Below are positions 9,269-34,781 of a stretch of DNA of 52,339 nt, in pieces. The notes under the pieces are model-generated. The model ran no database searches and was not told the DNA's origin. It saw only the letters and a list, made by a program, of their open reading frames with translations. The stretch comes from a virus. Its lineage: Duplodnaviria > Caudoviricetes. The position numbers were made by a program, and so were the translations under genes. The stretch is from IMG/VR virus record IMGVR_UViG_3300025652_000108, positions 1 to 52,339 of that record. The stretch is one strand, 5' to 3'. The first letter of the stretch is position 1. Each line of letters begins with the position of its first letter.

Positions 9269-9278
9269 GCAGACAGCG

Positions 9279-9310: not shown

Positions 9311-9314
9311 TTGC

Positions 9315-13323: not shown

Positions 13324-13339
13324 TGTCGTCTCCTTGGGG

Positions 13340-13723: not shown

Positions 13724-13726
13724 CTG

Positions 13727-15286: not shown

Positions 15287-15330
15287 TGTCTATCCGTTTT
15301 ACAGTTGCTCAAGGTGTTTTACAGTACGGC

Positions 15331-16582: not shown

Positions 16583-16594
16583 GGTGTGTCCTTA

Positions 16595-17742: not shown

Positions 17743-17751
17743 TTGTTCCTC

Positions 17752-20093: not shown

Positions 20094-20155
20094 GGGTGAA
20101 AACCTCCGGTCAGCGCCGAGACGCTGTTATTTCGTGTTATAATTTTTTGGTGGTG

Positions 20156-20311
20156 CTAGTCGGCTTTGCCTTTGGCCTTGGTCAGCTTCTTCTTAGACTT
20201 AGGCCAGCCGAGGCGCATCTGGGCATACGCGCTGTCAGAGACAGTGCTCTTGGATTTCGGGCGACTCTTACCCTCTGCCTTACGCTTGTTGATGTTCCGA
20301 ACCAACGACAT
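20156..20311 (-). CDS. Small basic protein (51 aa, below the ORF-track cutoff)
   Basis: Manual translation MSLVRNINKRKAEGKSRPKSKSTVSDSAYAQMRLGWPKSKKKLTKAKGKAD; GGAGG upstream; fills the gap in the operon. Confidence 0.65.
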   Translation of the reverse strand: MSLVRNINKRKAEGKSRPKSKSTVSDSAYAQMRLGWPKSKKKLTKAKGKAD

Positions 20312-20314
20312 TTC

Positions 20315-20608
20315 TTACGCCTCCCGCCAAACACCTACGCCGAGAGTCGCGCCCTCGTCATCTTCCGTGCAAAGTTGCCACTCACCGTCCGCGTCCCGCG
20401 CCATATGCACTAGACGTGTGGCGAACTTACGCTCGAGCTTACGGCCAACTGCGGATGCGTGCGTGGTCATGTTGTTCTTGTCACGGCCGGGGATGAAGAA
20501 CATCTCACCGATGTCCATGGACTCGAACGGGTACTTCCTCCGACGGCCACGGTGCTTGCGGTTCGCCGCCGCTGACGGCAGCGGTACGTTTTTTATAACA
20601 GTATGCAT
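20315..20608 (-). CDS. Small putative DNA-binding protein
   Basis: RKYPFESMDIGE.FFIP...GVGVWR pattern common in phage small proteins; GGAG RBS. Confidence 0.6.
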   Translation of the reverse strand: MHTVIKNVPLPSAAANRKHRGRRRKYPFESMDIGEMFFIPGRDKNNMTTHASAVGRKLERKFATRLVHMARDADGEWQLCTEDDEGATLGVGVWREA

Positions 20609-20642
20609 GTGTTTCTCCAGTGTTATGTAGGCAACATAACCT

Positions 20643-21119
20643 CTAATATCTAAGGTGTAAAGTCTGCTGTCCGTTAACCTCGACCAAGTTTACGTCTGCC
20701 TCCCGTAGCTGGGCCAGTGCGAAAGCGTAGTCGGCCGCCCAGCGTGACAAGAATTCCTTGGTCGGCTTCGGCCAAACCACGTGCTTGATGCCTGCTTGTA
20801 TTACCTGTGCCGCGCACTGAGAGCAGCACGCATGGGTCACCACCAATGTGCACCCGCCCAGTGGGGTGGTGGCAAATAGTATCGCGTTTTTCTCAGCGTG
20901 CAGCGTGAGCTTTAGCTTGGTGTCTCGGTCCGCCAGTCGCTCAGGGGTGTCATTGATGCCGCGCGCAAAGCCGTTGTATCCCGCCGAGACGATCCGTCTG
21001 TTCTCGTCAAAGATAACTGCGCCAACCTTTGTACTCGGGTCTTTGCTTAGTAACGCGACATGTTTTGCCATACCGATAGCCCAGTCGCGGAGGTGTTCGG
21101 TGTTCAGTGGGTTACTCAT
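20643..21119 (-). CDS. dCMP deaminase
   Basis: SKDPSTKVGAVI, GYNG, HAE and C..C zinc ligands; start refined to MSNPL. Confidence 0.9.
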   Translation of the reverse strand: MSNPLNTEHLRDWAIGMAKHVALLSKDPSTKVGAVIFDENRRIVSAGYNGFARGINDTPERLADRDTKLKLTLHAEKNAILFATTPLGGCTLVVTHACCSQCAAQVIQAGIKHVVWPKPTKEFLSRWAADYAFALAQLREADVNLVEVNGQQTLHLRY

Positions 21120-21475
21120 AGCCCCATCTCCTCTGCATACGCATCTCGCACAAAAGTGGTTAGAAGCTCTGCCAGCGACATGTCGCGTGGCAGTTGATCC
21201 AGCAGCCACAACAATTCGTCTTCGCTCAAGCCGCTAAGAACCTTCTTGATGCTGCCACGGTCAGACTCATTTTCCTTCAAGAACAACGTCACTTGGTCGT
21301 GGCGATTCATTGTAGGCTTTGGCGGCAACAGGCCCAGTTCGCGGGCTTTGGTTATACGAGTGCCGACCCAATTTCTGTTTCTATCAAGTGCCTCCCCGAT
21401 CTGAATGTTGCTCATGCCCTGCGCTCGCAACTTTGCGACCGCCGCTGCACCTTCTGTCTTGCTCATGTACTTCAT
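21116..21475 (-). CDS. Putative HTH DNA-binding protein
   Basis: LRAQGMSNIQIGEALDRNRNWV...RELGL helix-turn-helix-like N-terminus. Confidence 0.55.
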   Translation of the reverse strand: MKYMSKTEGAAAVAKLRAQGMSNIQIGEALDRNRNWVGTRITKARELGLLPPKPTMNRHDQVTLFLKENESDRGSIKKVLSGLSEDELLWLLDQLPRDMSLAELLTTFVRDAYAEEMGL

Positions 21476-21693
21476 TCCCCCAACCCCTCCGTTACACGCG
21501 CCACCGGGCGCATGGATGTGAAGCTATCGAGGCAATAGCCGTCGGCCTCTGCGCCATCGACTGCTGCCATCGTCAGCATGATGTCAATGTGATTGGCGCA
21601 TGTTAGCTGCGTTGTGGTGACTTCGTAGTATCCGGTGGGCATCGTGGCCCCCGATACCGTGATGATTGTCAGGACTGTTGATAGTATCGTCAT
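21472..21693 (-). CDS. Small protein with hydrophobic N-terminus
   Basis: Coupled to both neighbours; signal-like N-terminus; two Cys. Confidence 0.45.
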   Translation of the reverse strand: MTILSTVLTIITVSGATMPTGYYEVTTTQLTCANHIDIMLTMAAVDGAEADGYCLDSFTSMRPVARVTEGLGE

Positions 21694-21887
21694 TATTTGT
21701 CTCCTTGTAAAAGTTTCAGTTCAGCAGCCTCAGCAGCATCACAAGCAGCAGCGTAAGTAGCATCAGCATCAGCATAAACAGCAGCATACGCAGCAGCATA
21801 CGCAGCCTCAGCCGCACCACAAGCAGCAGCATGAGCAGCAGCATAAGCAGCGTCAGCAGCCTTTAGTTCTTCAAGTTTACTTGTCAT
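21693..21887 (-). CDS. Ala-rich small protein (paralogue A)
   Basis: SKLEELKAA...AELKLLQG; similar to the adjacent ORF. Confidence 0.6.
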   Translation of the reverse strand: MTSKLEELKAADAAYAAAHAAACGAAEAAYAAAYAAVYADADATYAAACDAAEAAELKLLQGDK

Positions 21888-21893
21888 TTGATT

Positions 21894-22085
21894 TCATCCT
21901 TGTAAACGTATCAGTTCAGCCTCATACGCATCAGCAGCAGCATCATAAGCATCCCAAGCAGCACTAGCAGCATTAGCAGCAGCATCATCACGAGCTTCAA
22001 AAGCATCAGCATAAGCATAAGCCTCGTAAGCATCGTAAGCAGCCTCACGGGCAGCTTTGAGTTCTTCAAGTTTACTTGCGTTCAT
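21894..22085 (-). CDS. Ala-rich small protein (paralogue B)
   Basis: SKLEELKAA...AELIRLQG; GGAG RBS. Confidence 0.6.
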   Translation of the reverse strand: MNASKLEELKAAREAAYDAYEAYAYADAFEARDDAAANAASAAWDAYDAAADAYEAELIRLQG

Positions 22086-22088
22086 CGG

Positions 22089-22331
22089 TTATTCTCCCTT
22101 TCCGTGATCCAGCAGGAACCTGATCGGTGCGTTTTTGATTTCGACTGTTTCGGCTTTGCTTGCTTCGTATAGTTCTTGCAGGCGTTGCACCTGACGCTGG
22201 GCAATCTCGGCCAATGCCTTGATCTCCTCTGCGTCCTGCCTTGCTGTGCTGTGTCGCTTAGCATCGAGCCGCATGATCTCTGCCTTGCGCTCGATACGAT
22301 TGAGTGCTGCGGTGAGCGTTGCTCCCTTCAT
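22089..22331 (-). CDS. Hypothetical coiled-coil protein
   Basis: Coupled ATGA start with AAGGAG RBS. Confidence 0.55.
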   Translation of the reverse strand: MKGATLTAALNRIERKAEIMRLDAKRHSTARQDAEEIKALAEIAQRQVQRLQELYEASKAETVEIKNAPIRFLLDHGKGE

Positions 22332-22657
22332 TCTCCTTGCTCCTCTTTGCTTTGTGTTGGCTTATCGTTGATACCAATGTCTCGCGCCTCAAACGCCACG
22401 AGGAACGCTATGCAAGCCGCGGCGTGCCATGTGTGCGGTAGGCCTGACTCTGGGTCAAACTCCTCACCCGACCACCAAGCCGCCATGTGGCGACGCAGCG
22501 CTGCGTAGGGGCGGCCCCACGCCATGCCGAGCTCCCAGTTACGGTCTCCGTACTTCTCCGCGCCGAACGTCAGGACTGTCGCGATCGCCTCCTCAACCTC
22601 TGGCGGGGTTAAATCGTAACGCGGTTTACCTGAGTCAAACTTTATGCCTTCTGTCAT
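22328..22657 (-). CDS. dATP/dGTP diphosphohydrolase domain protein (DUF5664-like)
   Basis: G.KFD.GKPRYDL, TFGA.KYG.RNW..G and DPESGLPH..HA motifs. Confidence 0.8.
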   Translation of the reverse strand: MTEGIKFDSGKPRYDLTPPEVEEAIATVLTFGAEKYGDRNWELGMAWGRPYAALRRHMAAWWSGEEFDPESGLPHTWHAAACIAFLVAFEARDIGINDKPTQSKEEQGE

Positions 22658-22665
22658 GTTGTCTC

Positions 22666-22869
22666 CTAAAACGGGGGCTCGACCCCAAGATCGGACGGCT
22701 TCCAGCTCTTAAAAAATTCTGGGTGCAGACCTAAAGTTTCTATGAATAGCTCGATTGATGTGCTACCCTTTGCGCGAGAGCCTCCCTTGTGCTCCCGCTT
22801 TACCGCCTGACTTGAGGGTTGCTTCGGCAACCCTCTTTTTTTATTTCGGTACATTATTCCGGTTCCCAC
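22666..22869 (-). CDS. Hypothetical basic protein
   Basis: Short ORF filling the operon gap; start uncertain. Confidence 0.4.
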   Translation of the reverse strand: MGTGIMYRNKKRGLPKQPSSQAVKREHKGGSRAKGSTSIELFIETLGLHPEFFKSWKPSDLGVEPPF

Positions 22870-23363
22870 TCCGCTACGTCGGCAAGATCAGGGCTGCATG
22901 TGTACCACACCTTAGAGCGCCCTCGGTTGTGCGCACGCTCCATTGTGAACCGCGCGCATTTCCCTGCCCTAAAAAAGTCGTCCGTCTGGGTGATGAACGC
23001 GTGTAAGAGCTCGGTGTGCTCCTTTAGTGAAGCCCCACCGGTGTACTCGTGAAAGAGTTCGCCGGCCGTCCACACACCATTGTTTGATAACGTGCGCTCG
23101 ATGAAGGCACGCACCGCGACATGGCTCGGGTCTTCGATCCGCTTTAGTCCGGTCACCATATACGGTGTATGGTCGCGACGGTTCTCGAGTGGATTTTCCG
23201 TGACTGTTGCTTGAAAGATGTCGCCGACGGTGCCGTGCGCGGCAAGCATGACGCGTGGCGGTATGAAGCACGACTCACCTGTACCCTCGACGATACCGAA
23301 ACCGGTTCCCGTTGTCTCGAGTTGGCTGCTGATGCTGATAGTGACTGTGTTTTGTTCTAACAT
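22854..23363 (-). CDS. Hypothetical protein with cold-shock/OB-fold-like N-terminus
   Basis: TGTGFGIV...GESCFIPP......GD resembles RNP1/RNP2 of cold-shock domains; start refined by GAGG RBS. Confidence 0.5.
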   Translation of the reverse strand: MLEQNTVTISISSQLETTGTGFGIVEGTGESCFIPPRVMLAAHGTVGDIFQATVTENPLENRRDHTPYMVTGLKRIEDPSHVAVRAFIERTLSNNGVWTAGELFHEYTGGASLKEHTELLHAFITQTDDFFRAGKCARFTMERAHNRGRSKVWYTCSPDLADVAEWEPE

Positions 23364-23427
23364 GATGACCTCTCTGGTGGCGCAATATAGTAGTGACACG
23401 TTGTAGATGGTTCAGCTGGGCTGCGTC

Positions 23428-23724
23428 TCATAGGATGTGTTCTCCGTTGCCCCAACATGCCGCGGTTCCTTTCTCAAATGACTTGATCTCCATATCGTCA
23501 GAGAACCCGCAGTCTTGACAAGTAAAGGTGATGACAACAGCGTGACCACCATTCCCCGATGGGTTGCGTGCGAACAGGTCGGGCTGGGCGTTTACCAATA
23601 CGCTGCCGGTCCGCAGCTCGATGACGGCGACACGAATGTCGCCGCCCTCATCTCTCGAGTAAGTCTTTACTCGTTCTTTTTTAAGGCGCGGCTCGCCGCA
23701 CTCCGCGCAGTAAATCTTGGTCAT
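23428..23724 (-). CDS. Zinc-ribbon-like hypothetical protein
   Basis: CAECG and CQDCG pairs; AAGGAG RBS. Confidence 0.5.
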   Translation of the reverse strand: MTKIYCAECGEPRLKKERVKTYSRDEGGDIRVAVIELRTGSVLVNAQPDLFARNPSGNGGHAVVITFTCQDCGFSDDMEIKSFEKGTAACWGNGEHIL

Positions 23725-23736
23725 CAGTTGATCTCC

Positions 23737-24594
23737 TTATCCGAAGGCGGCCATGAAGCCGTCCATTGTGTCCATGATCCGCTTGGCCTCGCCTGATACC
23801 TCCCGGCGCAGGTCCTCGTCGTCACGCAGCTCGACGGGGTCGAGGTCTGCTAGGTGGTGCATGATGTCAATCCGAATGGACTCGAGGTCTGGATCGTCCA
23901 GCACATTGAGCGCGGGCAGGACCTCAACGATCTCACGCAGGTTGTCGATGGTTGCCCGCTTGAACTTGCTATCCTCGTCGGCCATGCGCGCGTGGAAGTG
24001 TGTCAGCGTCTTGGACAGTCGATCCCAGACCTCACGCATCGCACCATGGATGCGGTCGTTGACTTTGCGCTCGATGCTCTGACGCACGTGGTCGACGTAC
24101 TTTTTGTCCATGTCGACACGGAAGTCGCCAGCGTCACCGACAGGCTCGAAGTCGAGGCGGACACGATACATGCCGCGCAGCTCCGACTGGGCTGGGTAGT
24201 CATCTGGGTTGAACACTTCACCCATGCGGAACTCCGCACGGTCACGCTCGACAGGGTAGTCGACGGTGATGAACTTCTCGATCGCCGCCTCGGCCTTCGT
24301 GACCAGTGCCTCGTGCTCCTCGATGAACGTGGCGAACAGCTTGCGAGTGAGCAGACGGCCACCGGTGTCATGCCAAGGCAGTGTGTTCTTGTGGAAGTGC
24401 TTGCGGATCGTGGTGAGCGATGAGTTTACATCACGCAAAACTTTGCTGGGCATGAGGCGCTTGTTGACGTTGGTCGCATCCTCGTCAGCGTGGTGCGTGA
24501 GTGCAACAGAGCGGCCAAGCTCAGCGTCACGTGCAAAGCCGTACCAGCGGCCGATGGACAGATCAACGATCATACATTCTTTAGTGATAGACAT
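23737..24594 (-). CDS. DUF3150-like early protein
   Basis: Start refined by CAGGAG RBS; TLPW...G.RLL, FNPDDYP and LN...DP.L motifs of a family recalled beside phage AAA/vWA pairs. Confidence 0.6.
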   Translation of the reverse strand: MSITKECMIVDLSIGRWYGFARDAELGRSVALTHHADEDATNVNKRLMPSKVLRDVNSSLTTIRKHFHKNTLPWHDTGGRLLTRKLFATFIEEHEALVTKAEAAIEKFITVDYPVERDRAEFRMGEVFNPDDYPAQSELRGMYRVRLDFEPVGDAGDFRVDMDKKYVDHVRQSIERKVNDRIHGAMREVWDRLSKTLTHFHARMADEDSKFKRATIDNLREIVEVLPALNVLDDPDLESIRIDIMHHLADLDPVELRDDEDLRREVSGEAKRIMDTMDGFMAAFG

Positions 24595-24624
24595 AGGTAG
24601 TCTCCTGATGTTTTGTGACACGTG

Positions 24625-24918
24625 TCACAGATTGTAAATCATGTGAGTCGCAGCGATGGCTGCATCCTCGGTGGGGTAAACTCTGGACTCACCCACGAGC
24701 AGGTCAGTGCCGTCGGTAGTCAGCAGCTCGAACATGTCGATGGACAGATACTCGTTACTGTAGGTGTTGCGCACGATGGCGTATCGGCACTGGTTGGGGC
24801 GGCGCTGAAAGATGTCGGTGAGAGAGCTCGCACCCTCGTCACCGCAGAAGTAAAAGCCGCCGTTGGCGCACACGAACGCACGCAGCACGAACGTGTTATG
24901 GTCGACGTCAGTAGTCAT
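24625..24918 (-). CDS. Hypothetical protein
   Basis: Coupled to the vWA gene (ATGA); its TGA stop lies inside a palindrome copy. Confidence 0.55.
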   Translation of the reverse strand: MTTDVDHNTFVLRAFVCANGGFYFCGDEGASSLTDIFQRRPNQCRYAIVRNTYSNEYLSIDMFELLTTDGTDLLVGESRVYPTEDAAIAATHMIYNL

Positions 24919-26033
24919 ACACGCACCACCTGACCGATGGGTACGTCAATGTCCGTGGTGCAGCACACGATCAACGGATACGCTGGCTCAACAGGCCATG
25001 GTGTGTAGCCGTCAGTGACCATGACCGCCACGACTGGTTCGTACTGCTCGACGTGAGCGATGGGCACACGCATGTCAGTGCCGCCGTAACCCACAGGCTT
25101 GAGGGCGATGGGCTCACCTACCTCGAACACCTGCTCGCCTTTGACCTCGGTGTCTGCCCAGACCACGCGGATACGCTCGGGCTGCATGATGTCGGCGATG
25201 GCGCTAACTTCTGACGCGATACGATTTATGTCGTGCTCGGTGATAGAGCCCGAGGTGTCGCCGATAACCACGATCTCGCCCATACGCTGGTTGTGGCGCG
25301 TGGGTAGGTAGACAGAGCCGAACCGACGGTTGCGACGTGACCATGTCTCGTCGTCGTTGGTGTTACGCGTCATGTAGTCACGCAGTAGCTCGTGCCATGG
25401 TGCAGCTGGGTCGAGTATCTCGGACACTGCACGCTCGAGAGAGCCGGACAGCTTGCCAGCCATACGCGCCATGTTGGCGGCTTGGGCTACCTGCTGGTCG
25501 ATCTGCTGGCTACGCGCAGCTTGCTCGCTGGGTGACATGTCAGCTGGGTCCATGAGGTCGGACGCGAGGCCGCCGCCAATCTGGTCGTCGTCACCGGGTT
25601 GACCTTGGCCCTGACCGCTGCCGTCTTTGTCCTTGTCCTTGTCCTTGTCTTGGATCAGCTCGTCATAGACGATCTCGGCACCTCGGTTGGAGTAGTTCTT
25701 GTCGAGCAGCCCACCCGTAGGCATCGTTAAGCCTTGCTCGACAAGGATCGCATTGATCTGGTAGTCAGTGGCATAGTTCCACACGAGCCGGTCGCGAGAC
25801 TGCGCACGCAGGCCATGCTTGAATGCGATGTGCAGGACCTCGTGGGCAAGCACAAAGATTACCTCGTCATCAGTTAGCTTGGCGAAGAAGTCAGGGTTGT
25901 AGAAGATGCTGCGCATGTCGGTCGCAGCGGTGGGTACACTGCTCGTCTCGACCAGAGGGCTGGTCATAAGCAGCGTCCCGAAGAACGGCTGCTTGAGTAG
26001 AACACGTGAGCGGAGTTTAGATAGACGATCCAT
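24915..26033 (-). CDS. DUF2201-type metallopeptidase with vWA-like domain
   Basis: TAATD, HEVLH (HExxH), WN.A.D..IN; MIDAS DTSGS, GGTD and TDGY; start refined to MDRLSK. Confidence 0.85.
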   Translation of the reverse strand: MDRLSKLRSRVLLKQPFFGTLLMTSPLVETSSVPTAATDMRSIFYNPDFFAKLTDDEVIFVLAHEVLHIAFKHGLRAQSRDRLVWNYATDYQINAILVEQGLTMPTGGLLDKNYSNRGAEIVYDELIQDKDKDKDKDGSGQGQGQPGDDDQIGGGLASDLMDPADMSPSEQAARSQQIDQQVAQAANMARMAGKLSGSLERAVSEILDPAAPWHELLRDYMTRNTNDDETWSRRNRRFGSVYLPTRHNQRMGEIVVIGDTSGSITEHDINRIASEVSAIADIMQPERIRVVWADTEVKGEQVFEVGEPIALKPVGYGGTDMRVPIAHVEQYEPVVAVMVTDGYTPWPVEPAYPLIVCCTTDIDVPIGQVVRV

Positions 26034-26069
26034 AGTTACCTCATTCGGTTTTGTGACACGTGTCACAGA

Positions 26070-27095
26070 TTACTGGAACACGGCGCGATACTGCGTCGAG
26101 AAGCTCATAAACTGGTCAGTCGTAAACAATGCCTCGTCACGTTTTACGGCAAGCTGCCATGCCATGACGACATACTCGGGTGACAGGCGCTGCAAGAAGG
26201 TGAACAGCTGTGGCGCGTTGTCGACCGTCAGCGCACCGGACACGCTGATAGCGACAGCGTATGTCATGGATAGATCGTCGGGCAGGTCGACACCCTTGGG
26301 GTCAGCGATGATGTCCTTGATCGGGATCATAGACTGCCACACGTCAGCGAAGCCGGCGAACTCGGCAGCCGGACCCTCGCCGATGGCACCGACGATGGCG
26401 GTATGCTTGACAGCGGCAGGCATACCGGAGGCGTAGTAGCGCAAGGCTTTGACCCATGAGCGTGGTGTCGCGAAGGCCTTGTCTGGCTTGGTCGGGTCGA
26501 ACGTGGACAGCAGCGGCTTGCGGAACTGTAGGAAGGCCACACCGATGGCGGGTAGGCCAGCGCGCTGGGCATACTCGCAGAAGCTATCGACGTCGACACC
26601 GATCTCGGCGTGCGTGAAGCGGTTGGCAAGTGGTGTGGGCATACGGTTGGTGACGCCACGGTCAGACTCGCGGTTACCTGCGGCGATGACGACGACGTTA
26701 GACATGAGCTGGTGCTCGCCGACAGCACGATCGTTGATAAGCTGGTAGGCGACAGCTGCAACAGCGGGTGCAGCTGAGTTGATCTCGTCAAGGAACAGGA
26801 AGATCGGCTTGTCTGGGTCGTCGCTGAATGCTGGGTTGCCCTCGAACGGTAGCGTGCTCGGCGCCTGCCAGACAGTGAGGCCGTTGGCATGTGGCACAGG
26901 GATACCGCGCAGGTCTACGCTGTCATACTGGCTAAGGCGAATGTCGACCAGTGCGCCGTCGTAGTCGCTGCACACTTGGGCAATGCACTCGGACTTGCCT
27001 ACGCCGGGCTGACCCCAGAACATGATAGGCTCACGCATCTCGACAGCGACGTGCTTGATAAGTGACTTGGCTTCATTGATGTTGATGACTTGCAT
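26070..27095 (-). CDS. MoxR/dynein-related AAA+ ATPase
   Basis: Walker A GQPGVGKS, DLRGIP, Walker B LFLDE, AAGNR, LANRF, TPRSW; start refined to MQVIN (GGAG RBS). Confidence 0.88.
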   Translation of the reverse strand: MQVININEAKSLIKHVAVEMREPIMFWGQPGVGKSECIAQVCSDYDGALVDIRLSQYDSVDLRGIPVPHANGLTVWQAPSTLPFEGNPAFSDDPDKPIFLFLDEINSAAPAVAAVAYQLINDRAVGEHQLMSNVVVIAAGNRESDRGVTNRMPTPLANRFTHAEIGVDVDSFCEYAQRAGLPAIGVAFLQFRKPLLSTFDPTKPDKAFATPRSWVKALRYYASGMPAAVKHTAIVGAIGEGPAAEFAGFADVWQSMIPIKDIIADPKGVDLPDDLSMTYAVAISVSGALTVDNAPQLFTFLQRLSPEYVVMAWQLAVKRDEALFTTDQFMSFSTQYRAVFQ

Positions 27096-27174
27096 TGTAG
27101 TCTCCGTATGTTTGTGAGTTTGTGACACGTGTCACAAATTGGATTGTTGTCGTTACTATTGATGTAACATATAC

Positions 27175-27203
27175 ACTATAACATAACTGCTAGGGTACGT
27201 CAA
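27175..27203 (-). promoter_or_regulatory. Sigma70-type early promoter
   Basis: Minus strand TTGACG-N17-TATAGT with TGn extension, upstream of the AAA gene. Confidence 0.75.
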
Positions 27204-27220
27204 GCATAATGTTTTACGCG

Positions 27221-28018
27221 TTACCAAGTAAGATAAGGTAGCCGTTCCTCCGTTCGCTGGTTGATGGTTTTGAAGGCTATGAGACGCCACCGGTCTTGTG
27301 GTGTCAGGTCGTTGAACGATTGCTTGAGATACGTGCCCAGCTCTTTCGGTTGCGTCGACCAGTGTGTGTAACGCACCCCCGACCCACCGCAGATGTTATC
27401 CAGTGCGGTTCGTTGGTCTGCGGTAAGCCAATAATCTTTGTGCTCGGGCACGTAGAGTTCTTTCATACGCGCCCACGCTTTGGACGCCGCTCGCAGCTGG
27501 CGCAGGTGTGCTCGTTCCTCGGTGGTATATTTGGTCGGTGATGTGTGACGGATGGTATTGCCCCGCGGCTTGGCTTTAGGACCGGTATAGTAGACACCAC
27601 CCCTCCGACGGATATGCGCCGGTACGCTAGGGCTATGCAGCGTCGACGACGTGAGCATGAAACCCACGACCATGCGGTGGTCGAGGTCGAACCAGATTTC
27701 TTGGCTCTGGGACGCACCTCGAATCGTAAGGTTCAAGCCTGACTGCGTGATCTCTTCGCCCTGTGGTGTGCGCAGAGGTGCGCCGTCGATCAGGTCGGAC
27801 AGGATGTCGAGGCGGGCCGTCGATACTACCCCTGCACGGAGCCCTGCTTTCTCACCCATGTCGGGTCGCGTCAGGCGACCAGAGCCGGCGGTGGCGGAAC
27901 ACTCCCCTGTCTCGAATGTTACGACACGATCGTTCAACTCCGACACATGGAACAGACCGAACCGGTCCCAGTTTAAATTCCGGTGAGCACGCAGCTCAGG
28001 GACAGACATGATTTTCAT
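27221..28018 (-). CDS. Hypothetical early protein (265 aa)
   Basis: AAGGAG RBS; lies between two palindrome copies. Confidence 0.65.
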   Translation of the reverse strand: MKIMSVPELRAHRNLNWDRFGLFHVSELNDRVVTFETGECSATAGSGRLTRPDMGEKAGLRAGVVSTARLDILSDLIDGAPLRTPQGEEITQSGLNLTIRGASQSQEIWFDLDHRMVVGFMLTSSTLHSPSVPAHIRRRGGVYYTGPKAKPRGNTIRHTSPTKYTTEERAHLRQLRAASKAWARMKELYVPEHKDYWLTADQRTALDNICGGSGVRYTHWSTQPKELGTYLKQSFNDLTPQDRWRLIAFKTINQRTEERLPYLTW

Positions 28019-28068
28019 TGGTATCTCCTTCGATTATTTTGTGACACGTGTCACAGATTGAGGGTGCA

Positions 28069-28968
28069 TCAGAAAAAGTCGTGGCTTGCGACCTCGAGGT
28101 TCTCACTCTTTTGCATACGTGACATGTGGTTGTAGTCGGTGGCGTAGGCGACCTCGTCGAACCGTATGGCGTCTACCTCGTGCTTGATAATGCCCATGAG
28201 TCTCGCCCGGTTCACCTTCGCTGACAGGTCGTGCCGAGCCAGTCGCAGCGCGACCTCTGGCCAGCCTGTTCTGGGGCCACGGAGTAACTTGAGCAGCTCA
28301 GAGCCTTGGAGGCTGTGGTCGATACCCATCGCGTGTGCCAATGCTAGGTAGGTGGAGTAGTCAAGCCCGCGATCCCAGTGCCGTTGGTTTTTGGAAAGGT
28401 CCTTGAGCTCTATGTACGACACAAAGAAATCCATGAACTCACTGAGGTTGTGCTCTTTATAGCCCTCCGACGCGATCTTCCTATCCGTACGGTAGTGGCG
28501 CCACGGGACGACGGCAGGCGAGTTCTCGTCGATCGACCAGTAGAAATCCACAGGGTCCATAGTCAGCATGACATAAGACCCGCTCAGCTTATAGAGCCGC
28601 GCCTTCTCAACCGTAGCCGTAATAAGCCGAAGCACCGAGCAGTGCGCTGACACATCGACCGCAGCAGGCGTTAACGCGTTGATAAACGTAACAGTCGAAA
28701 CGGACGGATACATGCTGAGCACGACGCGCGGCACGCCATCGGCGTCGACAGGGTAGTAGCGCACGCAGTCGGTCTGGTGCAGCTGGAACACGACACTACC
28801 ATCGGCCTCGATACGCACGGTCTTAGGGTTGTTACCAGACCGACGACCCAGTGGGCGAGGTGCATCGCTGGCATAGCCACGCAGAGGTGTGATCCCGTCA
28901 TAGATGTCACGCGCAGAGCGGTGGCTGTAGACGCTTGGAAGGTCAGCAGAGTTAATTGAAAAGGCCAT
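28069..28968 (-). CDS. Hypothetical early protein (299 aa)
   Basis: Start refined to MAFSIN by GGAGAC RBS; lies between two palindrome copies. Confidence 0.65.
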   Translation of the reverse strand: MAFSINSADLPSVYSHRSARDIYDGITPLRGYASDAPRPLGRRSGNNPKTVRIEADGSVVFQLHQTDCVRYYPVDADGVPRVVLSMYPSVSTVTFINALTPAAVDVSAHCSVLRLITATVEKARLYKLSGSYVMLTMDPVDFYWSIDENSPAVVPWRHYRTDRKIASEGYKEHNLSEFMDFFVSYIELKDLSKNQRHWDRGLDYSTYLALAHAMGIDHSLQGSELLKLLRGPRTGWPEVALRLARHDLSAKVNRARLMGIIKHEVDAIRFDEVAYATDYNHMSRMQKSENLEVASHDFF

Positions 28969-29020
28969 TGAAGTCTCCGTAGGTTTTGATTGAGATTGAG
29001 TGAGTGTTTTGTGACACGTG

Positions 29021-29446
29021 TCACAGATTACTGGGGCGACGATCGGTGCGCTCATACACCACGGTCACATCGAAGCTGTCATACTGGTGGCGATACACCT
29101 TGAGCACAGCGCGGTAGCCGCTGTTCATATCCACACGCTGGATGCAGCTATCCAGTGAACGCTGAACAGCCTCGTCGCAAAACGAAATCGGATGGACAAC
29201 ATTGGTACCCACGTCACGCAGAATGATGAACATCACGTCATCCACGTCCAAGCGGGCCATCGCACCCGCGTCCCACAGTAGGTCGCTGTAGTACATATAC
29301 TTGTGGTCGAAGAATGGGATCGCCACCTTGGCCAGCTTGTCAAAGGCATTGCGGAACGCGTCATTACGCACGTCACTGGCCTCATAGGTCGGGTGCTTGG
29401 GCTGCCACTCGTGGTCGATCTGGTTCTGTGTTGTCGTGCTAAGCAT
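29021..29446 (-). CDS. Hypothetical early protein (141 aa)
   Basis: GGAGAC RBS before MLSTTT; TGA stop inside a palindrome copy. Confidence 0.6.
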   Translation of the reverse strand: MLSTTTQNQIDHEWQPKHPTYEASDVRNDAFRNAFDKLAKVAIPFFDHKYMYYSDLLWDAGAMARLDVDDVMFIILRDVGTNVVHPISFCDEAVQRSLDSCIQRVDMNSGYRAVLKVYRHQYDSFDVTVVYERTDRRPSNL

Positions 29447-29499
29447 GGTCGTCTCCATGTACTGGTTGGTGTTGGTTATTCTGTGACACGTGTCACAAA

Positions 29500-29694
29500 T
29501 CAGGCTGTCTCCGGGGCCACGTCGATCGTCCACAGGTCATCTTCCCATGCGAGGCATTCACGACTGTGAAAGTATGTGTCCGGTGGGCACAAATCAGGGC
29601 GCACCATGCGCAGATCACCACGCCAAGATGCGAGTGGAAAAACAGGATGCGTAGGTGCGTCCAACGTCAGGCGGTTAAGAATACTATCAAACAT
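29500..29694 (-). CDS. Hypothetical early protein (64 aa)
   Basis: AAGGA RBS before MFDSIL; stop 2 bp from a palindrome copy. Confidence 0.5.
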   Translation of the reverse strand: MFDSILNRLTLDAPTHPVFPLASWRGDLRMVRPDLCPPDTYFHSRECLAWEDDLWTIDVAPETA

Positions 29695-29786
29695 AGCATG
29701 TCCTTTCATGCGAGTTACAAGGGTGTGGTCTGTGACACGTGTCACAAAACCGTAGGTTAGTCGGTCAAGTTATCGACCTTACTAAT

Positions 29787-29815
29787 ACAGTATCATACTT
29801 AAAACCTTACGTCAA
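29787..29815 (-). promoter_or_regulatory. Putative sigma70-type promoter heading the cassette array
   Basis: Minus strand TTGACG-N17-TACTGT. Confidence 0.5.
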
Positions 29816-29894
29816 TAGTAAAGTTTTACACGAAAAAACTAAGAATAAGGAAATACGCGTGTCAGAATACACACACATCAGGCTGCGTGGCACG

Positions 29895-30338
29895 TAAGCC
29901 ATTGAAAACATTGCCACTAGTCCAACTTTTTGGGGGAGTAGTCCAGATGGGGTTTGGCTAAGTCCTTGAAAACATTGGCACTAGTCCAAGCTACGATATG
30001 TAGGGTTATAAAAAGGGGGTCTGCAAGCCATTGAAAACATTGCCACTAGTCCAAATAGTCCACTTTTTTGGGATTTTGGGAGCAGAGAGAGACCATATTT
30101 AGGGGAGGGTTAATTTATACGCAAAAAAGAATAGTCCAGAGAAGCTGTCTGGTTATATATATCTTCAAATGAGTGGACTAGTTGGACTATTTGGACTAGA
30201 GCCTTTAATATCAATGGGTTACGACCCCCCCAAATAGTCCACTCTACTTATAGGTGTGGTGTTGTTTGGACTAGTGCTAATGATTTCAATGACTTAGGTT
30301 TTTGAATTTGGACTAGTGCTAATGTTTTCAATGACTTA
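29895..30338. repeat. Iteron-like array: three direct plus three inverted 31-bp repeats; candidate replication origin
   Basis: TAAGCCATTGAAAACATTGCCACTAGTCCAA-like at 29895, 29959 and 30024; inverted at 30191, 30266 and 30308; AT-rich, non-coding. Confidence 0.8.
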
Positions 30339-30437
30339 GCGGCGATGCCTCTCAAACCACTGGTTTATAAGGGTTTTTTAGTTATTTTGTGACACGTGTC
30401 ACAGAAACTGCGTACGCGGTTGTATTGCAGATAGGTA

Positions 30438-30623
30438 TTGACATTGTGGCATTCGGTTGGTAAGACACTGTCGTGTCTTACCAGAATCAGTACGAAATAA
30501 CACGTTACGGTTCGATAGACCAAACCATCCATCAAACTACTATATCGCAAAACATCTGAGAAAAGATGTCGCGTTGTGTCTTGACATTGTGGCATCCGGT
30601 TGATAAGACACTGTCGTGTCTTA
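30438..30623 (+). promoter_or_regulatory. Duplicated 43-bp promoter-like element containing a hairpin
   Basis: TTGACA-N17-TAAGAC followed by TAAGACAC-TGTC-GTGTCTTA, at 30438-30480 and 30581-30623. Confidence 0.6.
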
Positions 30624-30684
30624 TCGAAAACTTACGGTTTAAGACCTTGCACCCCTTACCACGTATTCTGTGACACGTGTCACA

Positions 30685-30714
30685 AAAAAGCCCCGCAGCT
30701 TTCGCTCCGGGGCT
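30685..30714 (-). terminator. Intrinsic terminator
   Basis: Minus strand agccccggagc-gaaa-gctgcggggct followed by a T-run that runs into a palindrome copy. Confidence 0.75.
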
Positions 30715-30739
30715 CATGTCGTTTAGATGTGAAGGCGGT

Positions 30740-31228
30740 TTACTTTTTGCTGGCGAAGGCCTTGATCTCGCGCATCAGTACCGCTGGCATTACCTTGGCG
30801 TTTTTGTTCGCGTAGGCCAGTAGGAAAGCCGCAGCTTCAGCTGGCGTCACAGCTGGCGGTATCATCGTGGCTGTGGGTTTGGGTGTAGCGGGTGCCGTGG
30901 GTACAGTAGGCGTGCGAGCCCCGCCACGCGCATCGTTGGCCTTTACACCCGCATCGTCGCGTGCCCGCTGACGGATTTTTCTTGCGAGTGCCAGCGCGGC
31001 CTTTTGTGCGTCGGTGCGTTTAGCCCCGCGCTTCATGGCCTTGGTCACGGCCGCGTCGGACCGCATGTTGCAGCGCTTCTTAAAAAATACGCGGTCGAAT
31101 TCTGCTTCTTGCGCAGGCGTCAGCTTGCCGCCGTTGCCCTTGATGAAGTTGGCCAGATCAAGCCGCGATGTGGTGATCTTGTTTTCGGAGTCGGCGAAGT
31201 TGAAAGCGATTTTTGCGATGGTTGTCAT
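30740..31228 (-). CDS. Basic Ala/Lys-rich early protein (paralogue 1)
   Basis: AAGGA RBS; own terminator; similar to 31636-32199. Confidence 0.7.
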   Translation of the reverse strand: MTTIAKIAFNFADSENKITTSRLDLANFIKGNGGKLTPAQEAEFDRVFFKKRCNMRSDAAVTKAMKRGAKRTDAQKAALALARKIRQRARDDAGVKANDARGGARTPTVPTAPATPKPTATMIPPAVTPAEAAAFLLAYANKNAKVMPAVLMREIKAFASKK

Positions 31229-31530
31229 TTTGTCATTCCTTTGACTTGAGTTTTGTTATGTAGATCATTTGCTACAAGACCTTTATCGCATGTTCTCAAA
31301 CATAGGTCAATAAAAAAGAACACGTCAAAAGTTATTTGTTTTGTGACACGTGTCACAAAATGGGCAGGTCAAACCATGCGCGGGTCGGACCGGGACCATC
31401 CATCAAACTACTATATTGATAGGGCAAGGACGCTCAGCGAATACGATCGGCTGGTGCGAGGCGAGCATGATCCATCCATCAAACTACTATATTGACGGTG
31501 CGGGATCGGATCGGAAGATATGACACGCGC

Positions 31531-31562
31531 AAAGAAAAACCCCGCGCCTTGCGGCACGGGGT
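31531..31562 (-). terminator. Intrinsic terminator
   Basis: Minus strand accccgtgcc-gcaa-ggcgcggggt followed by ttttcttt. Confidence 0.7.
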
Positions 31563-31635
31563 GAGGTTCACGGTGTGAACAAGAGGATTGAGTAGAGGAT
31601 GACGACCAGCGCCGCCATCCCTATTATATCGCGGA

Positions 31636-32199
31636 TCATGTTTTGTTATGATCCTTGGCGAAAGCGATGATCGCTTGCTGCAGTGCCTTGCCGCTGCCTT
31701 TGGTGAATAGCTTGGCATTCTTGTTACCAGCAGCCAAGAGAAAGGCGGCCATTTCAATGTTTGATAAGAAGGCAGGGATCATTGTGGCTGCTGGCTTTGG
31801 TGCTGCCTTGGCTGCTGCTATTGCCTTGGCCGCTGGCGCTGGCGCCTTGCTTGCCTTGCCACGGTTGTCGCTGGCTTCTACGCCTGCCGCCTTGCGGATA
31901 CGCTGCAGAACCTTGCGTGCTGCAGTATAGGCTGCCTCTTGCTTTTCAGTGCGGCGTGCCTTGGCTGCTGCTTTGGATGTAAAGCCTTTCTTGGCTACGA
32001 TTGTGCGGGCTGCCTCGGCCGTTGTGAGGCGTAGGTAACCCATCATGTATCCGCTAACCACGGCGTTTTTCAGTGCAGGCGTTTCATCGCCAGCCGCCTT
32101 GTAAGCTGCGATCGCATCGAGCCGTGCCTTGTCTGCGTTGCCGTCTGCGCGGCCCCAAGCTGCAGTTGCGTTGATGAGTGTTGCGAATGTCTTAGTCAT
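31636..32199 (-). CDS. Basic Ala/Lys-rich early protein (paralogue 2)
   Basis: AAGGA RBS; own terminator; similar to 30740-31228. Confidence 0.7.
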   Translation of the reverse strand: MTKTFATLINATAAWGRADGNADKARLDAIAAYKAAGDETPALKNAVVSGYMMGYLRLTTAEAARTIVAKKGFTSKAAAKARRTEKQEAAYTAARKVLQRIRKAAGVEASDNRGKASKAPAPAAKAIAAAKAAPKPAATMIPAFLSNIEMAAFLLAAGNKNAKLFTKGSGKALQQAIIAFAKDHNKT

Positions 32200-32372
32200 T
32201 GTCCGAATCCTTTATCGGTTAGGGTTAGACGACAGCGACCGCTGCCGATAACCAAGAGGTAAAGTATGACGCGTTATAGTTCAAGCGGTTATTTTATGAA
32301 TTGTTATATTATTTTCCAAGCCATTGTTTTTATTGCATTTCTTTTTTGTGACACGTGTCACAAAGCCGGACG

Positions 32373-32449
32373 GCCCTGCCCCTATGCAATGCCCTGCCCC
32401 CGCCCCCGCCCCCGCCCTATGCCATGCCCTGCCCCCGCCCCCGCCCCCG
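32373..32449. repeat. C-rich low-complexity repeat (G-runs on minus strand)
   Basis: cctatgc(a/c)atgccctgcccccgcccccgcccccg twice with a 35-bp period. Confidence 0.8.
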
Positions 32450-32670
32450 TAGGGCAGGGTATATATGCCCCCACCCGCGGGGATTCTCTGCAGATGGCGA
32501 GGGGGGTGAGGGGGAAAAAGAATTCTTTTGATATATATATACCGTACCTCACACATTTTTTGCAAAATTTTAGGCTTTTTTATAAGGTGTTAAAATATGA
32601 GTCGTCACACTACACCAACGAAGTCGCTGGTAATTTTTATTCTTCGGCTGCTACAACCAAAGTCTGATTC

Positions 32671-32700
32671 TTGACGAATAGTGTTTTTACCCCTTATACT
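32671..32700 (+). promoter_or_regulatory. Putative promoter of the packaging/structural operon
   Basis: TTGACG-N18-TATACT 23 bp before the TerS start. Confidence 0.6.
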
Positions 32701-32723
32701 GTGACAGATAGCGAGGACGCACC

Positions 32724-33335
32724 ATGGCCCCCAAAAAAGCCGACATAATCGACATGTTACCTGATGACGTCACTGCTCTGCTGAGTGAGCTGGCGTTTAA
32801 CGACGCGATGGAGATCGAGGCAAAGCCTGAGGCACAGATTGAGGAGCCAGAGGAGATTCTGGTTCTGGACGCGGAGGTCGTGCCTGACGCGGAGCCGGTT
32901 GCTGTGGAAGAGATGCGTGTGGTGTCTTTAGCGCCTGCGCAGCCTTCGGACCCGTCGGAGCTGGGTGGTTATCCACCTACTTTGCCGATTGAGGTCGCGT
33001 TGCGGACGGCCCCGCCGGATGACATCCGTGTGGCGTACGGATTCAGCATGGAGCAGTGGATTGCTTTGCAGTCGATGCCGAGGTTCCAGAGTGATCTTAC
33101 GGCTGCCGAAAAGATGCTGTCTGAGGAGGGCATGTCCTTCAAAGCGAAAGCGCGTCTGCAGTCGGAGGCTTTGTTGCAGACCAGCTGGCAGATGATTCAC
33201 GACACCACTGGCGATGTGCCGCCGAATGTGAAAGCTGATCTTTTGAAGTTCACGGTGCGCGCGGCTGGGCTTGAGTCCAACCCGAAAGATCAGGCGGCGG
33301 CGTTCACGCCATTGCAGATCAACATCAATATGTAA
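32724..33335 (+). CDS. Putative terminase small subunit
   Basis: Directly upstream of TerL; helical; ends in LQININM, as TerS-type beta-tails do. Confidence 0.6.
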   Translation: MAPKKADIIDMLPDDVTALLSELAFNDAMEIEAKPEAQIEEPEEILVLDAEVVPDAEPVAVEEMRVVSLAPAQPSDPSELGGYPPTLPIEVALRTAPPDDIRVAYGFSMEQWIALQSMPRFQSDLTAAEKMLSEEGMSFKAKARLQSEALLQTSWQMIHDTTGDVPPNVKADLLKFTVRAAGLESNPKDQAAAFTPLQININM

Positions 33336-33347
33336 TAGGTAGGGCGT

Positions 33348-34781
33348 ATGGCGAAACCGAGTAACGCGATCGACTATGCGCCGCCGCCCACGCTTGCGGC
33401 GTATATGCGTGACTACTTGCCGAGCGAGTTGTTCTACGACTGGGTCGTCGGGCCGGTTGGTTCAGGTAAGACGACGGCGATTTTCTTCAAGTTGGTCTAC
33501 ATGGCCAAGCTGCAGGAGCCCGGGCCGGACGGCATACGGCGCACACGAGCCGTGATTGTGCGGAACACGCTGCCTCAGCTGCGCGATACTACGCTTACAT
33601 CGTGGAATTATTGGTTCAAGGATGGTCAAGCGGGCAAATGGTACGCCACACAGAACAAGTTTTTGCTGAAATTCGACGATGTCGAGTGCGAAGTGCTGTT
33701 CCGACCACTGGATACGCCTGACGACGTGGCCCGCGTGCTATCTTTAGAGATTACGTTCGCACTTTTGGACGAATTTGTGCAGATTCCACGCGAGATTGTC
33801 GACGCGTTGTCCGCGCGACTCGGCCGATACCCCTCCGCGATCGACGGCGGGGCGACGAATTGGGGTATGTGGGGCTCCTCGAACCCCGACACCGAGGATA
33901 ATTGGTGGTTTGACTACCTCCATACGACCCTACCTGAGAACGCGACGTATTTTTTGCAGCCATCAGGCCTTTCGGAGGGTGCAGAGAACGTCAAGAACCT
34001 GCCCGGTCAGCGCGATTACTACGTCAACCAAGCCAAAGGGAAGTCCGAAGGCTGGATCAAGCAGTTTATTGACGCAGAATGGGGCTATTCGGCGGCTGGT
34101 AAGCCCGTTGTGCCGACCTACAACAAGGACTTGCACATCGCGCGGCAGCCATTGCGCTACGACAGCACGTTACCGCTAGTGGCCGGGTTTGACCCGGGCA
34201 TTGGAGGCTCGGCGATGATCTTCGGACAGGAAGACCCGCACGGTAGACTGCGTGTGCTCGGTGAATTGGTCCAAGACGGGTACGGCGCGGAGCGGTTTAT
34301 CAACGAGATACTGCGGCCATACCTGCGACGGCGCTTCCCAGAGGCGAAATTGATCGTGGCACCGGACCCTGCCGCCGCCAGTCGAGCGCAGAGTGACGAG
34401 AATTCGGTGGTGCAGGTCTTTCGGCGTTACTTTGACGTTAAGATCGAGACGAATAACCGCTTGCCGCTTCGTTTGGACGCCATCGAGCACTACTCGTCAC
34501 GTCTGACGGACGTCGGGCCAGCCCTGCTGGTCGATCCTGCTCAGTGCCCTGTACTGGTACGTGCGCTCGGTGGGGGTTGGCGGTATGCTATGGACGCTAA
34601 GCGTGGTATCATACGTGGTGCGGAGCCCGAGAAAAACGCATATAGTCACCCCGGTGACGCGTTCGGGTACCTGTGCCGGTTCTACCACAGGCAGGCGCAG
34701 CGCGGTGGCGACTACGGTATAGGCGGCGCCAAGAAATTTACACCCCCACGTAGCTTCGGTGCTGCGTATCACTTTAGGTAG
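33348..34781 (+). CDS. terL: Terminase large subunit
   Basis: Walker A GPVGSGKT, VRNT..QL.DTT, Walker B LLDE, nuclease GFDPG, SH..DA. Confidence 0.92.
   Translation: MAKPSNAIDYAPPPTLAAYMRDYLPSELFYDWVVGPVGSGKTTAIFFKLVYMAKLQEPGPDGIRRTRAVIVRNTLPQLRDTTLTSWNYWFKDGQAGKWYATQNKFLLKFDDVECEVLFRPLDTPDDVARVLSLEITFALLDEFVQIPREIVDALSARLGRYPSAIDGGATNWGMWGSSNPDTEDNWWFDYLHTTLPENATYFLQPSGLSEGAENVKNLPGQRDYYVNQAKGKSEGWIKQFIDAEWGYSAAGKPVVPTYNKDLHIARQPLRYDSTLPLVAGFDPGIGGSAMIFGQEDPHGRLRVLGELVQDGYGAERFINEILRPYLRRRFPEAKLIVAPDPAAASRAQSDENSVVQVFRRYFDVKIETNNRLPLRLDAIEHYSSRLTDVGPALLVDPAQCPVLVRALGGGWRYAMDAKRGIIRGAEPEKNAYSHPGDAFGYLCRFYHRQAQRGGDYGIGGAKKFTPPRSFGAAYHFR

Follow-up and report, generated by a model that had tools for sequence, protein, structure and literature searches.

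Comparison with described systems

Arrays of identical dyads in phage genomes are already on record: the repeats of Cluster O mycobacteriophages, the stoperators of Cluster A mycobacteriophages, the SPBRE elements of Bacillus phage SPbeta, and the promoter-early stem-loops (PeSLs) of T4-type phages. Here we describe an array of a 16-bp palindrome in the early gene arm of an uncultured, lytic-looking freshwater phage with a genome of roughly 60 kb and an N4-type capsid. The window, which is the whole of the IMG/VR virus record IMGVR_UViG_3300025652_000108 (52,339 bp, estimated to be 83% complete, with about 17% of the genome missing), carries 11 exact copies of the 16-mer, all of them within 24614-32362 and none elsewhere. 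The array fails at least one defining feature of each of the known systems with which we compared it. The explanation that we favour, at a probability of roughly 45%, is that the copies would together act as operators or roadblocks at many sites, bound by a DNA-binding protein that is sequence-specific and probably encoded by the phage.

The Cluster O repeat is the closest match in form. It is a 17-bp element, TGTTCGG-N3-CCGAACA, with invariant 7-bp arms around a free 3-bp centre, for which its authors predict dimeric DNA-binding proteins (PMC4351075). In both cases invariant inverted arms enclose a variable centre (in the window the centre is invariant too), there are many copies per genome, the phages are not obviously temperate, and most sites lie away from promoters. 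Cluster O, however, has more than 30 copies genome-wide, about one third of them inside genes and few if any at the ends of indels, whereas here 11 copies, none wholly within an open reading frame (ORF), are confined to 7.7 kb of the early arm, where they mark the junctions of genes. Here, too, one relative differs from another in the sequence of the repeat, and some indels do end at repeats.

The resemblance to PeSL cassettes is one of layout. In PeSLs (PMC2839356, PMC4122927), as here, a stop codon, a stem-loop, a Shine-Dalgarno sequence and a start codon follow one another ahead of small variable early ORFs, and the repeats are points of gene exchange between relatives. A PeSL, however, combines a strong sigma-70 promoter with a G/C-rich terminator stem-loop, and it is the promoter that is conserved; in the present array the dyad is conserved, most copies lack a promoter, no T run follows, and no circles were seen in the contigs.

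Stoperators, which bind a repressor (PMC9283540; see also PMC6550527), are likewise many identical sites in transcribed and mostly intergenic DNA, with a phage-specific sequence that co-evolves with its reader, and they act as elongation roadblocks. They differ in being asymmetric 13-14 bp sites that act in one orientation, bind a monomeric immunity repressor, and occur in both arms of temperate phages. The copies described here are perfect palindromes and occur in the early arm only. The window gave no integrase and, among its scanned ORFs, no repressor; of the related loci only L044 and L065 have asymmetric arms, each in a single orientation. SPBRE, too, is a conserved element repeated in a phage genome, and genome-wide binding identifies it as the site of the master repressor MrpR (PMC10516654). 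Unlike the present phage, SPbeta is temperate, and MrpR has a tyrosine-recombinase fold, while the corresponding domain, PF00589, gave no match in the window or its relatives.

Beyond phages, the KorB operators (OB) of plasmid RK2 and the parS sites of ParB are also sets of identical palindromes, 13-16 bp long and about a dozen in number, whose distance from promoters varies; parS shares the CACGTG centre found in the core of our site and clusters near an origin. The half-site in the window nevertheless differs from the universal parS at two of eight positions, and the ParB_N domain (PF02195) was absent from all six records searched (the window, four relatives and the unrelated contig G005, described below), although positive controls were detected.

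The palindrome array in the window

The array occupies the promoter-proximal 7.7 kb of the minus-strand arm together with the divergent region beside it. Besides the 11 exact copies, no version with one to three mismatches is found anywhere in the 52,339-bp record. Shuffled sequences contained a mean of 0.38 copies and a maximum of 4, and 11 was reached in none of 100 shuffles. No called ORF wholly contains any of the 11, though about 76% of 24000-32400 is coding, an outcome with a chance probability of about 1e-7.

A sequence-only reading of the window had named seven copies at seven successive gene junctions. All seven are exact matches where it had placed them, and the 16-mer is as invariant as it had said, now in 11 of 11 copies; its range was incomplete, however, as four further copies to the right (starting at 30388, 30669, 31342 and 32347) had been missed. 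Its account of the junctions agrees with our measurements throughout. Copy 1 (24614-24629) supplies with its own TGA the stop codon, at 24625, of a 97-aa ORF, and lies 19 nt before the ATG of the ORF at 23737-24594. Copy 2 (26052-26067) follows the stop of a MoxR-like AAA ATPase gene (26070-27095, minus strand) by 2 bp and precedes by 18 nt the ATG of a DUF2201 metallopeptidase/vWA protein (24915-26033, minus strand). The vWA gene overlaps the downstream 97-aa ORF, and this coupled junction is without a copy, as had been noted; the AAA ATPase gene, by contrast, has a palindrome on both sides, in the window and in relatives. Copy 3 (27121-27136) is 25 nt before the AAA ATPase start and 38 nt 3' of the -10 element of a minus-strand sigma-70-like promoter (27203-27175; TTGACG-17-TATAGT, 10/12 matches, with TG); the preceding stop, at 27221, had been put at about 85 bp away with a promoter in between, and measures 84 bp. 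Copy 4 (28040-28055) is 13 bp past a stop at 28069 and 21 nt before the ATG at 28018. Copy 5 (29010-29025) again provides a stop from its own TGA, for the ORF ending at 29021, and the next ATG is 41 nt on. Copy 6 (29482-29497) is 2 bp past the stop at 29500, with the next ATG 35 nt on. Copy 7 (29731-29746) lies 40 nt 3' of a weak promoter-like TTGACG-17-TACTGT (29815-29787, read by eye), its ATG following after 36 nt. The leaders of these seven, counted on the sequence as 19, 18, 25, 21, 41, 35 and 36 nt, span exactly the 18-41 nt reported earlier, and are so short that no promoter is possible 3' of the repeat.

The four copies added here lie as follows. Copy 8 (30388-30403) is in non-coding DNA adjoining the iteron-like region at 29895-30338, and copy 9 (30669-30684) stands immediately past a terminator-like hairpin and T run 3' of a 162-aa ORF (30740-31228, minus strand). 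Copy 10 (31342-31357), ahead of the same ORF, is preceded by a pair of TATAGT elements and followed by a predicted promoter (31328-31299). Copy 11 (32347-32362), in the divergent region, is 27 nt upstream of the -35 element of a predicted promoter (32319-32291) ahead of a 187-aa ORF (31636-32199, minus strand). A promoter scan placed four minus-strand sites near the palindromes (27203, 31328 and the overlapping pair 32319/32318), and none inside the elements.

The conserved site is longer than 16 bp, being a 20-bp dyad of the form T-Y-[16-mer]-R-A. The outer T at -2 and A at +2 (positions +/-10 of the dyad) are present in 11 of 11 copies. At the intervening +/-9 positions the left base is always a pyrimidine (C in five copies, T in six) and the right always a purine (A in eight, G in three), and yet the two form a Watson-Crick pair in only three of the 11. 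The 16-mer itself matches a TGTGA-N6-TCACA core, and all 16 positions, the central 6 bp included, are identical in every copy. The exact 16-mer does not occur in the searchable literature, and a broader search of the literature brought up no work on this lineage; in IMG/VR it is found at 26 loci, mostly as single copies, which is near the level of chance by a rough, uncomputed estimate.

Arrays across the lineage

Relatives of the terminase were collected from contigs of viruses and metagenomes, together with as much as 10 kb of the DNA upstream of them, and 38 loci have at least 5 kb upstream of TerL. An array was defined as a single 6+6 inverted repeat present in at least four exact copies in this upstream DNA, with the downstream structural DNA as control. 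By this definition, 19 of the 38 loci possess an array of their own dyad, with 4-11 exact copies, while in the control the best repeat never exceeded two copies. Arrays with imperfect arms are found in L044 and L065. Among the arrays there are at least 12 different arm sequences, separated by gaps or loops of 1-7 nt. In the three complete relatives confinement to the early arm is absolute: all seven copies lie inside 6.6 kb of it in G001 (62 kb), all nine inside 11.8 kb in G002 (61 kb) and all 13 inside 19.6 kb in G003 (65 kb). Of the 12 exact copies of the 15-bp dyad in G003 (6108-25740), 11 have C as the central base of the sense strand, which is either a hint of orientation or a sign of the common descent of the copies.

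The placement of copies in relatives repeats that in the window: they follow a stop codon and precede by 15-45 nt a start codon, with a Shine-Dalgarno sequence in between, or they lie in the non-coding DNA nearest the terminase side. Several copies in L103, L108 and L085 come about 34 nt after AATAGT or TATAAT, which are -10-like (read by eye), and a repeat stands immediately past terminator-like hairpins in L065 and L090, as at 30669 in the window. It is this placement, after promoters and directly after terminators, that leads us to read the elements as a multi-site operator or roadblock.

Early regions were compared with closest relatives whose TerL is at most 75% identical to that of the window. 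The window and G001 (terminase 75% identical) have a common gene order of ORF328-like, ORF265-like, AAA, vWA, ORF97-like and ORF294-like genes, and in the comparison with G001/L032 a repeat is present at all four shared junctions (after the ORF97-like gene, after and before AAA, and before the ORF265-like gene). The arm sequences at these junctions have nothing in common. Junctions that are kept while their arm sequences are replaced are what one would expect if the sites co-evolved with a reader acting in trans. A more distant relative, L090/G002, shares its arms with the window, but its centres vary.

Beyond the lineage, one cultured phage has a similar array. Stenotrophomonas phage StenR_269 (L193, OR838459.1), whose N4-type capsid protein is 34% identical, carries 10 exact copies of a 12-bp palindrome, TTTAACGTTAAA, between 159 and 24578, in the early/middle arm; eight of the copies separate annotated genes. 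Its published description does not mention a promoter, palindrome or hairpin, and uses 'repeat' for technical repeats only. A similar array in a phage that can be grown makes the question of function testable.

Duplex DNA or RNA

If the dyads were read as DNA, one would look for conservation of sequence, and if as RNA, for conservation of pairing. Within a genome the arms are invariant while the centres vary in L090, L032, L043, L064 and L173. In the window, the invariant +/-10 positions lie outside a Y/R at +/-9 that pairs in only three of 11 copies. Mismatches within the arms are themselves fixed, the same C.C mismatch recurring in five of five copies in L044 and the same A.C mismatch in four of four in L065. 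Across variant copies, 24 changes affect a single arm and three are compensatory (two of them independent), and G.T and A.C pairs number 23 and 19, with no strand bias. A conserved stem with a free loop is the look of duplex-DNA sites, whereas RNA-protein recognition usually reads loops and bulges. Conserved arms, variable centres, fixed arm mismatches and the lack of a wobble strand bias therefore favour an operator or roadblock, and from them we infer readout as duplex DNA, with a phage-encoded reader and repression as the further parts of the proposal.

Each phage of the lineage has its own dyad just past the stop of an early gene, or 25-40 nt past a promoter -10, and 15-45 nt before the next start. 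In the mechanism that we envisage, one sequence-specific, probably dimeric and phage-encoded DNA-binding protein would bind all of these sites and, sitting in 5' leaders and between cistrons, could control the whole early arm at once, the simplest mode being a roadblock that shuts early transcription down. Precedent agrees with this: those repeated elements of phage genomes that have been put to the test, SPBRE (PMC10516654) and the stoperators (PMC9283540), are bound by repressors. The sequence-only reading had put forward recombination sites, per-gene operators or roadblocks, and messenger RNA (mRNA) processing hairpins as three options; the second is now the best supported of these, the DNA-binding protein it calls for having no counterpart among the scanned ORFs.

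The main rival, which we think unlikely but would rank ahead of the other alternatives, is a stem-loop acting at the RNA level in leaders and between cistrons, either as the site of an RNA-binding protein (a translational operator, a nut/boxB-like antitermination site or the target of a specific endonuclease) or as a stabiliser of processed monocistronic mRNAs. The predicted stems are of 6-10 bp (in the window an 8-bp stem and 4-nt loop at -7.4 to -10 kcal/mol). That most versions fold at -7 to -12 kcal/mol suits this rival, as does the first early unit, in which a promoter, the hairpin, a basic RGGxR protein and a terminator succeed one another in a manner that resembles pL-nutL-N of lambda; nor is any of the 11 copies inside coding sequence. 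On the other side stand, besides the conservation of arms rather than loops, the fixed mismatches in L044 and L065, the lack of a G.U excess over A.C on the sense strand (23 against 19), and the single-arm variants that far outnumber the compensatory ones. Hairpins are weak in the AT-rich versions of five genomes (L164, L078, L065, L121 and L100, means of -1.4 to -4.6 kcal/mol), and the copies at 30669, 32347 and 31342, which lie past a terminator or upstream of predicted promoters, would often be outside the RNA. The sense strand 3' of the palindrome in the window has A residues and no T run, and Rfam contains no family matching the sites, with nothing above the gathering score. Processing by RNase III in particular, the third of the earlier options, is unlikely because the stems are too short: an RNase III substrate requires about two helical turns, and stems of only 6-10 bp fall short of that.

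Several points count against the operator in its turn. Seventeen of the 38 loci have neither an exact array nor repeats of the L044/L065 type with imperfect arms. A compensatory double change, at 8924 in L103 and 5116 in L107, keeps the palindrome, and is the one arm change of this kind in favour of RNA. The Shine-Dalgarno sequence sits in the centre of the dyad, with the ATG abutting the 3' arm, in two of four copies in L065 and two of three in L053, a placement suggestive of translational control. Sense-strand transcription may run through every copy, and probably does, each lying past a stop and 15-45 nt before a start, so an RNA role is possible. To these come the results of the search for a reader: no helix-turn-helix DNA-binding domain was matched in Pfam or PHROGs among the 25 window ORFs scanned; the candidate family tested gave no match to PDB folds (all E >1) and only a non-significant association with arrays (p = 0.10); a proteome-wide comparison found no window protein closer to G002, which has the same arms, than to G001; and G005 has the same core without a protein in common with the window. 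All of these weigh against the operator.

The search for a reader

The candidate just referred to is the 187-aa product of the first early gene, a basic helical protein with an RGGxR motif, together with its 162-aa paralogue (36% identity). The family is kept in many relatives, with 27 ORFs in the 68 loci searched, and its genes are flanked by repeats; its AlphaFold2 model has a mean predicted local distance difference test score (pLDDT) of 80. Loci with both the family and an array number 11, with an array only 10, with the family only 4 and with neither 13. The L090 member is 18% identical to that of the window, although the arms are the same. With its association non-significant and its similarity not following arm sequence, we reject this family as the reader for now. 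No repressor-like Pfam match was found among the scanned ORFs of the window. When clusters of upstream ORFs were compared with array status, only the AAA ATPase (9 loci with against 0 without) and the vWA protein (6 against 0) stood out; these are not DNA-binding families, and their link with arrays may follow phylogeny.

The core of the site also recurs beyond the lineage. G005 (loci L202-L204), an unrelated 41-kb viral contig with a GC content of 49%, carries at 20618-34772 eight copies of a 22-28 bp palindrome with the window 16-mer as its core, four exact and four with 1-3 changes, ahead of the ribosome-binding site and ATG of plus-strand early genes; three of the copies share one single-arm T-to-C change. 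This may be coincidence, given 65,536 possible 16-bp palindromes and millions of viral contigs, or may point to a shared or host factor. Because G005 has the core without a shared protein, a phage-encoded reader is no more than probable, and a host factor or chance may account for the core.

A host factor would take a definite form if the sites were bound by CRP, Vfr or a Clp-type regulator, the phage thereby coupling its early genes to host cyclic AMP signalling or titrating the host regulator. We regard this as improbable. The core is an exact TGTGA-N6-TCACA, the CRP consensus, and L090, L052 and L100, though not the closest relatives of the window, fit the same formula; G005, of other GC content, has the 16-mer as well, no phage protein tracks the motif, and at 32347 the centre of the copy comes about 70 bp before a predicted start site, which is close to a class I position. 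At orthologous junctions, however, there are no fewer than 12 other dyads, which are spaced differently and are not CRP boxes. Most copies stand in leaders or between cistrons without a promoter at -41.5 or -61.5, only 32347 being near an activator or repressor position; the identity of 16 of 16 positions in 11 copies extends to the central 6 bp, which CRP reads weakly; and the flanks are T-Y and R-A rather than the consensus AAA and TTT.

A wider form of the operator proposal, which we hold to be possible but doubtful, is that these phages have a lineage-wide 'gene punctuation', in which a genome-specific dyad would head every early unit and cistron, a fast-evolving reader of no known family would switch the early arm as a block, the sites would be replaced in concert, and the same marks would serve as joints for gene exchange. 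Regulation and modular evolution would then be coupled in one element. What the lineage adds to the arrays already on record is that position at orthologous junctions is kept while sequence is completely replaced, that phages of strictly lytic appearance have the array in their early arm and nowhere else, and that gene gain and replacement break at repeats. Position kept with sequence replaced calls for a co-evolving reader or for some homogenising process of an unknown kind. Were the reader found, it would define a new family of global phage regulators and supply portable, orthogonal operator-regulator pairs, and it would explain both the control and the reshuffling of the most variable part of these abundant environmental phages.

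A possible role as hairpin promoters, and the giant virion ORF

The N4-type capsid and layout, with short hairpin-forming sequences before early genes, invite a further explanation, that the dyads are hairpin promoters for an injected virion RNA polymerase (vRNAP), a 1986-aa ORF lying where N4 has its vRNAP. The early promoters of N4 are DNA hairpins (PMC4496689). The major capsid protein belongs to the N4-gp56 family, the order of TerL, portal, capsid and giant ORF with converging arms resembles N4, and near-identical, genome-specific sites before genes have the look of promoters for a single-subunit RNA polymerase. We nonetheless consider this very improbable. No RNA polymerase signal was detected in the giant ORF with Pfam, with PHROGs, or with phmmer and a four-sequence profile against the PDB, which we take to include the N4 vRNAP structures, or in the protein atlas, the record searched lacking about 17% of the genome. 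Nor has the ORF any similarity by BLASTP to the 'putative vRNAP' of StenR_269, which was so named for its size and composition only. Promoters in the form of a perfect palindrome would fire in both directions; loops of 1-7 nt and conserved arm mismatches misfit the rule of a 5-7 bp stem and 3-nt loop; 11 copies compare with about three in N4, and loop length varies; and host-type, sigma-70-like promoters lie upstream of several copies.

The giant ORF (41343-47303), part of the virion module, resembles over its C-terminal 650 aa a 2184-aa protein of Pseudomonas phage Rollin (26% identity), and the protein atlas points to an LPD38 polyvalent-protein domain.

Gene exchange at the repeats

Early gene content is highly variable among relatives, and part of that variation has boundaries at the repeats. 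L043 has three paralogous small genes whose shared homology starts at the upstream repeat and ends 12-20 nt past the downstream repeat, and one of them separates AAA from vWA, two genes that in the window have just one palindrome between them. L103 and L108 differ in that a small ORF, enclosed by conserved units of promoter, repeat and leader, has been replaced. Other changes do not follow the pattern: in L103 a gene has been duplicated in tandem without repeats between the copies, and G001 has an extra ORF with a repeat on one side only. The earlier expectation that differences in gene content would break at the palindromes is thus borne out in the first two cases and contradicted in the last two.

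The sequence-only reading had offered the repeats as boundaries of gene cassettes, possibly integron-like. As a description and as an evolutionary pattern, repeat-delimited cassettes hold, on the evidence of L043 and of L103 and L108; a dedicated integron-like system is unsupported, no recombinase domain having been found in the records searched. That the repeats should be dedicated sites of site-specific recombination, integron-like or forming mini-circles, with gene gain and loss as their primary function, is the least probable of the explanations considered here. The repeat-bounded units, the L043 insertion between conserved genes, the L103/L108 replacement and the variable gene content all speak for it. 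Unlike integron attC arrays, however, which adjoin a tyrosine recombinase (IntI), the array has no such neighbour: PF00589 was absent from five of five records (the window, the three complete relatives and G005) where positive controls were detected in 14 of 14, and serine recombinase or resolvase domains were absent from the same five records, their positive controls again being detected. No joints at palindromes were present in the contigs of four DNA runs, and contigs drop rare forms. The one-sided repeat of G001 and the repeat-free duplication in L103 also run against it, and the repeat-plus-leader tracts of L043, conserved over 40-45 nt, would give some identity for ordinary homologous recombination. 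A likeness of the L032 and L121 arms to integron core sites was considered and rejected, as the polarity is opposite and there is no integrase.

Because the same conserved sequence stands, with its leader, at every gene boundary, the repeat doubles as recombination homology, over which early genes would be gained, lost and replaced as they are at PeSL elements. Judged from the sequences compared, gene gain and replacement fit homologous exchange at conserved regulatory sequence, in the manner of PeSLs, rather than a dedicated recombination system.

Genome context and other elements

Minus-strand genes run from about 32.2 kb down to 9.3 kb, beginning with small unassigned ORFs, the AAA ATPase and the DUF2201/vWA protein, and continuing with dCMP deaminase, DNA polymerase A, exonucleases, a helicase and a primase-helicase. 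From 32.7 kb onwards the plus strand encodes the terminase, the portal, the N4-gp56-family major capsid protein and the 1986-aa ORF. The nearest isolates are at most 46% identical by capsid protein and 29% by polymerase, while the nearest relatives are 98% and then 94-83% identical by capsid protein. A nucleotide search of GenBank phages with the region returned no match, and the AAA ATPase as a query for close viral loci returned one weak match only. Nine studies have metagenomes, of freshwater and of other origin, that contain near-identical DNA.

Several other repeated elements lie among the palindromes. Between those at 29731 and 30388 is the iteron-like array at 29895-30338, with GGACTA/TAGTCC cores around an AT-rich centre, which is likely to be a replication origin. 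A second hairpin, TAAGACAC-gaca-GTGTCTTA, occurs twice at 30440-30640, between the palindromes at 30669 and 30388, with a matched change in both arms; its copies share a 22-nt tail and have no ORF attached. A 21-nt element containing TATAGT (ATATAGTAGTTTGATGGATGG) has three minus-strand copies, near 31490, 31414 and 30543, and at the equivalent place relatives have two or three copies of an (A/G)TAGTAG element 90-100 bp apart; these 21-nt elements may be tandem early promoters or an origin element. An intrinsic-terminator-like hairpin (31539-31562, minus strand) follows the 187-aa ORF. At 32380-32540, in the divergent region between the early and late arms, there are G-rich direct repeats (GGGGCGGGGGCAGGGC-like) as well as a run of (AT)n, and the 133-aa ORF called there is probably not a gene.

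Variation among strains was seen in the contigs of the four DNA runs, which differ from the window by single-nucleotide polymorphisms, by a G-to-A change in the centre of copy 3 (27121) in a variant strain, the one centre variant, and by one replaced stretch in the 187-aa ORF. In the last case, at 32007-32192, the strain in one metagenome run has 184 bp of the N-terminal part of the ORF replaced by 205 other letters. Elsewhere in the minus-strand arm, between the VRR-NUC-like and helicase genes, a 64-aa ORF at 15331-15525 consists of a stand-alone ClpX-type C4 zinc finger (PF06689, E = 6e-9).

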